From sequence record MW822007.1: DNA of 64,000 nucleotides, one strand, 5' to 3'. Shown here in pieces: positions 3,617 to 7,321 of this stretch. Under the pieces are notes generated by a model. It did no database searches. It was not told the DNA's origin and saw only the letters and a program-made list of their open reading frames with translations. A program made the position numbers and the translations under genes. Within the stretch, counting starts at the first letter, position 1; every line of letters starts with the position of its first letter. Origin of the DNA: Escherichia phage BF15.

Positions 3617-3645
3617 TTCAAAATGAAGAAAGGGGCCGAAGCCCC
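3617..3645 (-). terminator. rho-independent terminator downstream of hoc
   Basis: GGGGC-TTCG-GCCCC hairpin on the minus strand followed by T-rich run. Confidence 0.55.
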
Positions 3646-3650
3646 TGAGA

Positions 3651-5069
3651 TTATGGATAGGTATAGATGATACCAGTTTCTAAAGCAGTTTTATGAATGA
3701 TGTATCCATTACGCGATTCTTGAACATCAACTTCTGGATAGTCTTTCATCATCTTCTGAAGAGTGTAACGATGCAAGTAGTATTTACTATCTGGATCTTC
3801 AGTTTTCCAATCTTTACCTTCTTCAGTCATTTTTTGGATTTCATCCATAACCCACCAACCGCACCAGATATAAGCTGAGCTACGATGTGGAAGAGGATGA
3901 ACATAAGGTAATTCACCTTCTGGTTCCGGAGCAACTTTATCAGTCACTTGAACTTGACCTGTGGCTTTAACTGTTTTACTATCATAGTCAGTTGCTGTAA
4001 CGACAGCAGTAACTTCAATAGTTTGACTTCCAATAGATGAGGTATCAACAGTATATACGTTAGTTGACCCTTCCACAGGAGAAGAATCTTTCTTCCATGA
4101 GTAAGTAATTTGTGCTGCTTCAGGTGCGCCAGTAACATTAGCAGTAAATGTAGCCGAAGCATCTTGCTGAACATTAATAGAAGGAGGAGTCAATGTAACC
4201 TGTGGATTCATTGTCTTCTTATTAACTGTCAATGATACTTCATTGGAAGTAACTTCCTTTTCATTATAATTTTCTGCAGTTACTTGGGCTACGCATTTAA
4301 TTCTTTTTACTCCACTTGTAGTTGGAGTATAGTTAAATGTAGAGTTAGTTTCTCCACCAACTTGTGAATCATCTACATACCACTGATACGTGGCAGACGC
4401 TCCATCAGGTTGAGAAGCTAAGGCAGCAGTAAATTGAACCGGGGTTCCAATTACTCCAGCAGCAGGACTAGCAGGAGTTACTGCCAAGGTAGTTGTCTGT
4501 GTCTTTTTATTAACCGTTAATGATACTTCATTGGAAGTAACTTCCTTTGCATCATAATCTGTCGCGGTTACTTGAGCTACACACTTAATTGTTTTAACTC
4601 CGCTTGTGGAAGGAGTGTAATTGAATGTAGCAGAAGTTGCTTCGCCCACAGGAGAACCGTCAACGTACCATTGATACGTAGCAGATGCGCCTGATGGCTG
4701 CGAAGCTAAGGCAGCAGTAAATTCAACGGCTGTTCCGATTACTCCTTCTGGAGGACTATTAGGAGTTATAGCTAAGGTAGTTGTTTGTGTCTTATTTTGA
4801 ACTGTGATAGTTGTACTAATTTCAGCTGTTTCAGCTTCAGAATCAGGAATAGTATTTGTTGCAACTACCTTAATAGTCTTTTGACCAGCAGGTCCTTTTA
4901 ATACATAATCAAAAGTTGCTGCTGATCCTTCTTGGGGAGCATTATCTACGCTCCAAGCATATGTAATAGTTCCACCTCCAGTTTCACCACTGGGTGTAGC
5001 AGTAAACTGCTGAGTCTGATCTATAACTCCAGTAGGTGTTTTAGGAGTTATATCAACTGTAAAAGCCAT
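3651..5069 (-). CDS. hoc: highly immunogenic outer capsid protein Hoc, extended form with an extra Ig-like domain
   Basis: 472 aa; T4-like Hoc N-terminus and C-terminal capsid-binding region; repeated Ig-like modules. Confidence 0.9.
   Translation of the reverse strand: MAFTVDITPKTPTGVIDQTQQFTATPSGETGGGTITYAWSVDNAPQEGSAATFDYVLKGPAGQKTIKVVATNTIPDSEAETAEISTTITVQNKTQTTTLAITPNSPPEGVIGTAVEFTAALASQPSGASATYQWYVDGSPVGEATSATFNYTPSTSGVKTIKCVAQVTATDYDAKEVTSNEVSLTVNKKTQTTTLAVTPASPAAGVIGTPVQFTAALASQPDGASATYQWYVDDSQVGGETNSTFNYTPTTSGVKRIKCVAQVTAENYNEKEVTSNEVSLTVNKKTMNPQVTLTPPSINVQQDASATFTANVTGAPEAAQITYSWKKDSSPVEGSTNVYTVDTSSIGSQTIEVTAVVTATDYDSKTVKATGQVQVTDKVAPEPEGELPYVHPLPHRSSAYIWCGWWVMDEIQKMTEEGKDWKTEDPDSKYYLHRYTLQKMMKDYPEVDVQESRNGYIIHKTALETGIIYTYP
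4221..4796. repeat. 288-bp tandem duplication inside hoc (two copies, about 80 percent identical)
   Basis: Unit 4509-4796 vs unit 4221-4508; encodes two consecutive 96-aa Ig-like domains starting KTQTTTLA. Confidence 0.8.
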
Positions 5070-5078
5070 AAGTTATCC

Positions 5079-5759
5079 TTATTTTAATGTTACGAAAGAA
5101 GAGTTGCGTGTTTCACGAATTAAAACTGATCCGTCACGGTTAATGTAGTAAATTAAGCTAAATAAAGTTTGGTGTGCTGACGCGTGTTCAAAACTAGTTG
5201 GGTGAGATTTCCAATCCGGAGTTTCAGCAATCCATTGATAAATCCACCAAGGAACCGTACAGAATCCTGGATTTTTTCCAATCAGCTGAAGATTTGGACT
5301 AAAGTTTTCCGGAAGAGTAAATACAGACGGCTTTTCAGATTCAATAATCTCAGCTACAGCCTGTTCGAATTTTTCTTCAACAAAAGGAGTATCTTCAATC
5401 AAAACATCGGTATTTTCAGGAATTTTATCCGTTTCTACTACTTCAATTTTAATGTCAGATTTAACCGGAGAATCAATCAGAAGTGCTGCTTCTGGATTGA
5501 CTTCTTCATCGTCATATTTTAACCCTTCTGCGGCATCAGCAGCATCGATTAAGTCTTTAATAGATAACCCATCAGTCTCTGGCATAGGTTCACTAGCGAG
5601 CTTCTGGAGGGCTTCTTCAATATCAATAACGATATTATCAAAAGATTTATTCTTTTTGACCTTTATACCAAACTGTTCAGCATATTCAGCTAATTTAGCT
5701 TTAGCTTCTTTATTATCATCAAGAGCCTTCAGCTCTGCAATATAATCTTTATCTATCAT
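5079..5759 (-). CDS. inh: inhibitor of prohead protease (Inh)
   Basis: 226 aa, same length and position as T4 Inh between hoc and uvsW. Confidence 0.75.
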   Translation of the reverse strand: MIDKDYIAELKALDDNKEAKAKLAEYAEQFGIKVKKNKSFDNIVIDIEEALQKLASEPMPETDGLSIKDLIDAADAAEGLKYDDEEVNPEAALLIDSPVKSDIKIEVVETDKIPENTDVLIEDTPFVEEKFEQAVAEIIESEKPSVFTLPENFSPNLQLIGKNPGFCTVPWWIYQWIAETPDWKSHPTSFEHASAHQTLFSLIYYINRDGSVLIRETRNSSFVTLK

Positions 5760-5772
5760 AATATTTCCTCAG

Positions 5773-5780
5773 TATAAATA
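5773..5780 (+). promoter_or_regulatory. late promoter TATAAATA upstream of uvsW
   Basis: Exact TATAAATA about 30 nt upstream of the uvsW ATG. Confidence 0.5.
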
Positions 5781-5809
5781 TAGATATATTTATTACATGG
5801 TATTTAGAC

Positions 5810-7321
5810 ATGACTGACATTAAAGTACATTTTTATGATTTTAGTCACGTGAGAATTGATTGTGAAGAAAGTACATTTCATGAACTCCGTGATTTCTTTA
5901 GCTTTGAAGCTGATGGATATCGTTTTAATCCGAAATACAAATATGGTCACTGGGATGGACGAATCCGTCTATTAGATTATAATCGCCTTCTTCCATTCGG
6001 CTTAGTTGGGCAAATTAAAAAGTTCTGTGATAACTTTGGCTATAAAGCCTGGATTGACCCGCAAATTAACGAAAAAGAAGAATTATCAAGAAAAGATTTT
6101 GATGAATGGCTTTCTAAATTAGAAATCTATTCAGGAAATAAAAGAATTGAACCACACTGGTATCAAAAAGATGCAGTGTTCGAAGGATTAGTTAATCGTC
6201 GTAGAATTCTTAATCTTCCAACATCCGCAGGTAAATCTTTAATTCAAGCTTTGCTTGCACGTTATTATTTGGAAAATTATGAAGGTAAAATTCTTATCAT
6301 TGTTCCAACAACTGCTCTGACAACTCAGATGGCTGATGACTTTGTTGACTATCGTTTATTCAGTCATGCAATGATAAAGAAAATCGGCGGCGGAGCATCA
6401 AAAGATGATAAATATAAAAATGATGCACCGGTAATTGTTGGTACATGGCAAACTGTAGTAAAACAACCAAAAGAATGGTTCTCACAGTTTGGAATGATGA
6501 TGAATGATGAATGTCATCTTGCTACAGGAAAAAGTATTTCATCTATCATATCAGGTTTAAATAACTGCATGTTCAAATTTGGTCTATCAGGTTCATTACG
6601 TGATGGCAAAGCTAATATCATGCAGTATGTTGGAATGTTTGGTGAAATATTTAAGCCAGTAACGACTTCTAAATTGATGGAAGATGGACAAGTAACTGAG
6701 TTAAAAATTAATAGTATTTTTCTTCGCTATCCCGATGAGTTCACTACTAAATTAAAGGGAAAAACTTACCAAGAAGAAATAAAAATTATTACTGGGCTCA
6801 GTAAAAGAAATAAATGGATCGCTAAATTAGCTATTAAACTTGCGCAAAAAGATGAAAACGCTTTTGTCATGTTTAAGCATGTATCACATGGTAAAGCTAT
6901 TTTCGATTTAATTAAAAATGAATACGATAAAGTTTATTACGTATCAGGGGAAGTTGATACTGAAACACGCAACGTAATGAAAACCTTAGCTGAAAATGGT
7001 AAAGGAATAATTATAGTAGCTAGTTATGGTGTATTTTCTACTGGTATTTCAGTTAAAAATCTACATCACGTTGTTTTAGCGCATGGTGTTAAATCTAAAA
7101 TTATTGTATTGCAAACAATAGGTCGCGTATTACGTAAGCATGGTTCTAAAACAATCGCAACGGTCTGGGACCTCATAGATGACGCGGGCGTAGTTTCTAA
7201 ATCAAAAACATCTTCTAAAAAATACTCGCATTTAAACTATCTTTTAAAACATGGACTTGATCGTATTCAGCGTTATGCTGATGAGAAGTTTAATTATGTG
7301 ATGAAAGAGGTTAAACTTTGA
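5810..7321 (+). CDS. uvsW: UvsW recombination/repair helicase (SF2)
   Basis: 503 aa; Walker A motif TSAGKS, DExH-like box NDECH. Confidence 0.9.
   Translation: MTDIKVHFYDFSHVRIDCEESTFHELRDFFSFEADGYRFNPKYKYGHWDGRIRLLDYNRLLPFGLVGQIKKFCDNFGYKAWIDPQINEKEELSRKDFDEWLSKLEIYSGNKRIEPHWYQKDAVFEGLVNRRRILNLPTSAGKSLIQALLARYYLENYEGKILIIVPTTALTTQMADDFVDYRLFSHAMIKKIGGGASKDDKYKNDAPVIVGTWQTVVKQPKEWFSQFGMMMNDECHLATGKSISSIISGLNNCMFKFGLSGSLRDGKANIMQYVGMFGEIFKPVTTSKLMEDGQVTELKINSIFLRYPDEFTTKLKGKTYQEEIKIITGLSKRNKWIAKLAIKLAQKDENAFVMFKHVSHGKAIFDLIKNEYDKVYYVSGEVDTETRNVMKTLAENGKGIIIVASYGVFSTGISVKNLHHVVLAHGVKSKIIVLQTIGRVLRKHGSKTIATVWDLIDDAGVVSKSKTSSKKYSHLNYLLKHGLDRIQRYADEKFNYVMKEVKL

Follow-up and report, generated by a model that had tools for sequence, protein, structure and literature searches.

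An in-frame tandem duplication of one Ig-like domain in the Hoc decoration fibre of Escherichia phage BF15 and the variable copy number of the domain in T4-type hoc genes

A 64,000-nucleotide (nt) stretch of DNA of Escherichia phage BF15 (record MW822007.1; the whole stretch is called the window below) carries a hoc gene coding for a protein of 472 amino acids (aa), longer than the Hoc of phage T4 by exactly 96 aa. We found that the additional length corresponds to one extra immunoglobulin (Ig)-like domain: two head-to-tail units of 288 nt, A and B, encode two copies of domain 2 of the protein, D2a and D2b. Very probably, this is a Tequatrovirus Hoc in which the two copies are old paralogues, and the pair is one state of a series running from one to four copies. 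The 472-aa Hoc is a common allele class, and the copy number of domain 2 in T4-type hoc genes ranges from 1 to 4. BF15 belongs to the genus Tequatrovirus, and its genome paper makes no mention of Hoc (PMC10059673).

Results

Tandem Repeats Finder located an array at 4212-4793 with a period of 288 nt, 2.0 copies, 80% matches and a score of 745, and a second repeat search returned two 288-nt copies at 78%; no other tandem repeat was detected in the window at a score of at least 80. The two units (4509-4796 and 4221-4508) lie head-to-tail and in frame, the first starting at codon 92, and are identical at 226 of 288 nucleotides (78.5%) and at 76 of 96 residues (79%). Of their codon differences, 31 are synonymous and 20 non-synonymous. 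The ungapped null at a lag of 288 nt across the window had a mean identity of 0.288 with a standard deviation of 0.042, and the maximum outside hoc in the whole window was 0.385, versus 0.785 for the unit pair. Thus the 288-bp in-frame tandem duplication of about 80% identity that an original prediction, made from the window alone, had described stands far above chance at 78.5%. The period of 288 nt equals 96 codons and one structural domain, as in a head-to-tail domain duplication.

Each 288-nt unit corresponds to a single whole Ig-like domain, namely domain 2 of Hoc (N92-N187 by T4 numbering). The Pfam profiles PKD (41.5 bits, cut-off 23.5), I-set (26.2 bits, cut-off 23.7) and also Ig_3 matched the window Hoc, and the best PKD stretch, residues 197-267, lies inside unit B. 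An AlphaFold2 model with a mean predicted local distance difference test score (pLDDT) of 84 gave confident beta-sandwiches at residues 1-91, 92-187, 188-283 and 284-377, with the strands of units A and B following one another in the same way and with block pLDDT values of 88-94 in domain 3 up to about residue 377. The fold was judged from this model because the crystal structure of RB49 Hoc was not returned by the sequence search of solved structures at E <=0.001. The top Foldseek matches in the PDB were strings of four Ig domains, Dscam1 Ig1-4 and Sidekick-2 Ig1-4 (E ~1e-13). In addition, the "Domain 2" used experimentally for the Hoc of phage PNJ-9 spans N92-N187 (PMC11853027), the same bounds as the window unit. 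As both the modelled domains and these bounds match the units, the architecture is D1-D2a-D2b-D3-capsid-binding domain. The earlier suggestion that every unit is an Ig-like module is therefore supported by a complete beta-sandwich in each (AlphaFold2, Foldseek), and the long fibre is predicted to consist of four Ig-like beta-sandwiches and a C-terminal domain, T4 Hoc having three Ig-like domains.

The minus-strand open reading frame (ORF) 3651..5069 of the window ORF list translates into a protein that matched, over its full length and at 100%, the NCBI entry 'highly immunogenic outer capsid protein [Escherichia phage BF15]' (cluster P0009). The whole protein also matched the T4 Hoc chains of the PDB (5vf3_Z, 8t1x and others; 376 aa, coding sequence of 1131 nt) with E 2.6e-217. 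Residues 1-103 align to T4 Hoc 1-103 and residues 189-472 to T4 Hoc 93-376 (E 2.5e-172), unit A being the copy that has no collinear T4 counterpart. The protein has the N-terminal row of Ig-like (PKD/I-set) domains expected of Hoc (Pfam, AlphaFold2, Foldseek), a C-terminal domain homologous to T4 Hoc residues 281-376, which form the capsid-binding domain (PMC10385173), and a gene in the conserved position between inh and 24.3/24.2/rnlB. Nearly all columns of the capsid-binding domain are invariant across 32 homologues. Window 3651-5069 thus codes for the Hoc decoration fibre of a Tequatrovirus. The alignment to T4 Hoc and the T4 gene order agree with the gene assignment of the original prediction, and the difference it had noted between 472 and roughly 376 aa amounts to exactly 96 aa. 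The window Hoc resembles T4 Hoc (PDB 5vf3, 8t1x, 8t9r, 9mkb, 9mof) in gene, locus, domains 1 and 3 and the capsid-binding domain; it differs in having two domain-2 units, where T4 has one that is itself mosaic, with unit B 91% identical to T4 domain 2 at the nucleotide level.

The boundaries D1/A (...GTTCAAAATAAGACACA), A/B (...GTTAATAAAAAGACACA) and B/D3 (...GTTAATAAGAAGACAATG) have in common the microhomology GTT.A.AA.AAGACA, coding for the linker TV(Q/N)(N/K)KT, and the homology of the repeat both starts and ends within it. These end points are sites where a whole domain can join or leave without disturbing a fold, and they would fit recombination at short homology. The longest identical stretches between units A and B measure only 30 and 22 nt; therefore, deletion within a stock should be infrequent.

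To place the gene among its relatives, the window hoc was compared by megablast with 50,697 phage records, of which 678 matched. Length classes were counted by record span in 60 evenly spread rows: the 1419-nt form with two units was present in 20 records, the T4-like form of ~1131 nt (T4, T2 and RB32 included) in 30 and a form with more than two units in three (UGKSEcP1, ESh16 and slur08), while seven records were partial matches or belonged to other genera. Among the 53 T4-type hoc genes of the sample, the two-unit form therefore accounts for 20, the one-unit form for 30 and forms with more units for three. Among the best 120 Hoc protein clusters, a ranking biased toward the query, 79 were of 376 aa, 29 of 472 aa and 7 of 568 aa, and the remaining five comprised one each of 371, 379, 468, 567 and 570 aa. 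Several of the 472-aa clusters hold tens to hundreds of member sequences. One 472-aa cluster with 58 members (P0017) bears the source name 'endonuclease [Shigella sonnei]', which is probably a mis-annotation of phage sequence inside a bacterial assembly.

The 472-aa Hoc proteins of BF15, vB_EcoM_G2133, PP01, ime09, teqskov and Shigella phage sb1 have the architecture and length of the window protein, and the G2133 gene is 97.8% identical to the window hoc in nucleotide sequence. As their second unit, ime09 and sb1 carry the gamma type defined below in place of the beta type of the window. Direct extraction yielded three units from the 568-aa Hoc of UGKSEcP1 and four from the 664-aa Hoc of slur08, with period and junctions unchanged; the 96-aa unit, linker junctions and flanking domains of both are as in the window. 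The slur08 gene (LN881733.1, L029 231-2225; 1995 nt), annotated only as 'PKD domain protein', holds the largest array among the genes examined. A variable copy number, which had been guessed at for phage populations, is thus found between isolates with 1, 2, 3 and 4 units. The accompanying caution that canonical Hoc proteins might already be this long applies in part: the 472-aa form makes up 20 of the 53 sampled genes, and the exact protein was already deposited as BF15 Hoc.

For a comparison of units we used 17 hoc genes (the window, 12 deposited phages and four IMG/VR contigs) with 29 units in all. A first extraction by the motif KTQTTTL, which missed 13 of 120 proteins and provided six diagnostic sites only, was replaced by a looser pattern and nucleotide analysis. 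Paralogous units within one gene share 74-84% nucleotide identity, and orthologous units across phages up to 99%. Unit A is closest to unit 1 of G2133 (94%), followed by unit 1 of PP01 and the single T4_ev240 unit (93% each). For unit B, identity is 99% with the second units of G2133 and PP01 and 91% with the one unit of T4. Aligned with other T-even Hoc proteins, the window gene thus has one extra domain-2 unit relative to T4, and its units have orthologues at 93-99% in other phages. In a neighbour-joining tree, units group with others of their type rather than with those of the same phage, and the single units of T4, RB32, JS09, Lutter and T4_ev240 nest within the paralogue clades. First units constitute the alpha type. 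The beta type comprises the second units of the window, G2133 and PP01, the units of T4, JS09, IMGVR2 and IMGVR3, and unit 2 of slur08; grouped with it are delta-like middle units (UGKSEcP1 unit 2 and slur08 unit 3). To the gamma type belong the single Lutter unit and the final units of ime09, sb1, UGKSEcP1 and slur08. The order, with alpha first and gamma last, is constant in all multi-unit alleles examined.

The Nei-Gojobori method gave dS 0.863, dN 0.127 and omega 0.147 for unit A versus unit B, which indicates that the copies are old and that both were retained under purifying selection; both are therefore probably functional. The flanks, D1 on one side and D3 with the C-terminal domain on the other, are 85-99.5% identical between the window and the other phages compared and so less diverged than the paralogues. 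Since the units cluster by type and the flanks are less diverged, the duplication predates the spread of the sampled alleles; it is neither recent nor was it made in the window phage. Furthermore, the 12-residue segment that closes the unit, VTSNEVSLTVNK, does not vary among the 29 units from the 17 genes (window 4221-4256 and 4509-4544), and it includes the run of 30 nt over which units A and B agree completely. At amino-acid-invariant codons its third-position (synonymous) diversity is somewhat lower than that of the remainder of the unit, 0.19 versus 0.32. Gene conversion, a recombination hot spot or a constraint at the nucleotide level could account for this conservation.

Up to nt 219, the single unit of T4_ev240 (LR597657.1, L023 301-1431) agrees with unit 1 of G2133 at all but two informative sites, and from nt 231 to 288 it agrees with unit 2 of G2133 at every such site, leaving 3 mismatches over the 288 nt; the breakpoint of the chimera lies between nt 219 and 231. 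Such a unit corresponds to the product expected of an unequal crossover that deleted one unit from a G2133/BF15-like allele, and the proposal that the repeat is a recombination substrate thereby gains a clean example. The name T4_ev240 suggests an experimentally evolved phage; a search for its origin, made to see whether the chimera is a laboratory product, yielded just two incidental mentions. RB32 has a unit with a similar, less clean chimera pattern, and the units of IMGVR2 and JS09 look like early-breakpoint products. Copy-number variation among close relatives and chimeric units are both what a duplicated domain is expected to display.

The order of genes around hoc is that of the annotated T4 locus (rnlB, 24.2, 24.3, hoc, inh, uvsW): a 334-aa RNA ligase, two small ORFs, hoc, a 226-aa Inh and, in opposite orientation, a 503-aa helicase. 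The flanks of hoc are 92-94% identical to the T4 locus (blastn). In the T4 record, inh and the helicase gene are separated by a gene for a homing endonuclease of 205 aa (T4 locus L022, 144-761). In the window, only a 50-nt gap (5760-5809) lies between the minus-strand inh (5079-5759) and the plus-strand helicase gene (5810-7321), so that the mobile endonuclease is absent from the window phage. The T4 late-promoter motif TATAAATA was not found in the 200 nt upstream of hoc (window 5070-5269), where just a Shine-Dalgarno-like AAGGA precedes the ATG by 7 nt; hoc may therefore be read through from, or co-transcribed with, inh. At the position equivalent to the probable terminator of the window, the record of phage G2133 has an annotated terminator. 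The features of the gene are listed in Table 1.

Table 1. Features of the hoc gene of the window; positions refer to the window, residues to the 472-aa protein
Feature	Position	Strand	Description and basis
hoc coding sequence	3651..5069	-	472 codons and stop; D1-D2a-D2b-D3-capsid-binding domain
Ig-like domain 1 (aa 1-91)	4797..5069	-	aligns to T4 Hoc 1-103; AlphaFold2 beta-sandwich, block pLDDT 76-91
Unit A, domain 2a (aa 92-187), alpha type	4509..4796	-	repeat analysis; strand pattern as in unit B
A/B junction	4498..4514	-	GTTAATAAAAAGACACA, coding for the linker ..TVNKKTQ..; read from sequence
Unit B, domain 2b (aa 188-283), beta type	4221..4508	-	collinear with T4 domain 2, from residue 93
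Ig-like domain 3 (aa 284-379)	3933..4220	-	alignment to T4 domain 3; Pfam Ig_3 and I-set at 289-374; AlphaFold2
C-terminal capsid-binding domain (aa 380-472)	3654..3932	-	near-identical to the C-terminal region of T4 Hoc
Probable intrinsic terminator	3626..3645	-	GGGGCTTCGGCCCC then TTTCTT, just past the hoc stop; read from sequence

Discussion

In the explanation that we favour, D2a and D2b would have arisen when exactly one Ig-like domain was duplicated in tandem and in frame, the ends of the duplication lying in the conserved linker TV-x-x-KT, and the window pair would be one state in a series of 1 to 4 copies of the 96-aa unit. Unit types are common to different phages, and single-unit alleles consist of one type or of a chimera of two. 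Copy number would have been altered repeatedly, through unequal recombination between units together with exchange between alleles, and not through an event in the window phage. The window Hoc would still occupy the centres of the gp23 hexamers, like its T4 counterpart, by means of its essentially unchanged C-terminal domain. The extra domain would lengthen the fibre by one Ig module over the ~180 angstrom given for T4 Hoc (PMC10385173), and would double the domain-2 surface, including the motif NEVSLT, which occurs at aa 180-185 in unit A and at aa 276-281 in unit B. In PNJ-9 Hoc the MUC2/fucose-binding site was mapped to NEVSLT, and S183/L184/T185 of Domain 2 are needed for MUC2 (PMC11853027); the presence of the motif in both window units is a resemblance to that site. 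A doubled domain 2 could alter the reach or the avidity of mucus adherence, and an effect of the second copy on adhesion is plausible by analogy.

Several points weigh against this explanation or restrict it. In the T4 unit a beta-type prefix is followed by a suffix of the alpha type (best chimera unit 2 then unit 1, 16 mismatches), and as no single deletion in an alpha-beta array gives such a unit, exchange between alleles must contribute. The history of hoc units is thus a recombination network that the neighbour-joining tree only summarizes, and the sequence data are compatible with more than one order of events, with gain as well as loss, and with a T4 form that is either ancestral or reduced. 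The frequencies are estimates from 60 sampled rows rather than a full census. The alignment behind the AlphaFold2 model is shallow, with 32 homologues, and the C-terminal domain of the model is of lower confidence (block pLDDT 42-69). As to function, in the four-domain Hoc of PNJ-6 the critical MUC2 residues are in domain 1 despite a conserved NEVSLT (PMC11853027), hence a doubled NEVSLT need not matter.

The same two-unit gene could have been assembled in a co-infection, by unequal recombination at the linker microhomology between diverged single-unit alleles of the alpha and beta types. Single-unit alleles do exist for alpha (IMGVR4), beta (IMGVR2, T4 and JS09) and gamma (Lutter), mosaicism is rife among hoc units, and the linker microhomology would permit such a join. 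However, the types differ at ~22% of nucleotides, mostly synonymously (dS 0.86), and the flanks are 85-99.5% identical, so that alleles of an orthologous domain would need to be far older than the flanks around them. The constant order of units is also more readily explained by descent from a single array than by several independent assemblies, and we regard such an origin as rather improbable.

Another view holds that the second copy of domain 2 is neutral padding, its number drifting without a fitness effect since Hoc is dispensable in the laboratory. Hoc has indeed been described as non-essential (PMC10580926), and copy numbers from 1 to 4 coexist among close relatives. An unselected in-frame copy would nevertheless be expected to decay or be lost, whereas both copies are under strong purifying selection (omega 0.15) and the segment VTSNEVSLTVNK is the same in every unit; we therefore hold out little likelihood for padding. 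Finally, a recent duplication in the isolate or an assembly artefact, with a 472-aa protein that is no real virion component, was excluded, as the copies differ at 62 of 288 positions and so cannot be collapsed or expanded reads, the 1419-nt gene aligns in one piece, over its full length, with dozens of separately deposited genomes, the records coming from various countries and hosts, and an omega of 0.15 speaks of long-term selection on both copies; the artefact foreseen as a possible refutation by the original prediction is ruled out with it.

Variation of domain number in Hoc has precedents. A structural study of 2023 described 650 Hoc homologues, most of which retain Ig-like domains strung together on the conserved capsid-binding domain; the number of Ig-like domains runs from one to 10 (PMC10385173), and it was also reported to vary widely elsewhere (PMC13435897). 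The Hoc of Serratia phage Muldoon, of 1174 aa and 10 Ig-like domains (PMC10385173), likewise joins an Ig-like string to a capsid-binding domain as in the window. The Hoc-like protein of Klebsiella phage PMBT63 (468 aa) has four Ig-like domains, one above T4 Hoc, as does the window protein, and was proposed to bind fucosylated mucin glycans; it is 46% identical to T4 Hoc, and its extra domain is not described as a tandem copy of domain 2 (PMC13435897). PNJ-9 Hoc, in contrast, has three domains and has lost one where the window has gained one, although the bounds of Domain 2, N92-N187, are common to both (PMC11853027); its gene shares only ~65% nucleotide identity with T4 hoc.

Among distant Hoc homologues of other T4-like phages (~50% identical), the lengths step by ~95 aa through 279-282, 367-377 and 471-472 aa. 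The Hoc of two IMG/VR contigs, L005 (472 aa) and L006 (471 aa), owes its extra domain to tandem copying of the domain-3 type (KKTMSGVSV...) rather than of domain 2. The Hoc of L007 and L008 has 377 aa, and that of L011 has 282 aa and is without a middle domain. The gain in L005/L006 and the loss in L011 are independent events at equivalent linkers, and the domain-3-type gain implies that domains have been gained or lost at linkers more than once.

A broader reading, to which we give only tentative credence, is that the domain-2 array is a copy-number-variable adhesin cassette of 1-4 units of three or four types in fixed order, reshuffled by recombination, which would tune fibre length and glycan avidity to mucosal or environmental niches, with T4 Hoc a reduced mosaic and not ancestral. 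The corresponding notion that the canonical four-domain Hoc of T4 is a reduced form of an ancestral array is, in our view, possible and on the doubtful side.

Conclusions

The window Hoc belongs to an allele class that is common, already deposited and ordinary for a family with documented variation in domain number. Only the series of 1-4 domain-2 copies and the evidence of reduction by unequal crossover are mildly new; we found no paper on a 1-4-copy domain-2 tandem array in Hoc of the T4 genus or on the chimeric deletion product, which is weak evidence given incomplete coverage of the literature. Since a clean recombinant allele exists in T4_ev240, annotators should be prepared for hoc length classes that differ by multiples of 96 aa, and such differences should not be taken for errors. 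T4 Hoc is a widely used scaffold for display and vaccines and a model for the adherence of phages to mucus. The natural alleles with 2-4 copies are ready-made longer fibres that have already been tested by selection, and the copy-number alleles form a natural series with which to probe the effect of fibre length or domain-2 valency on mucin binding.

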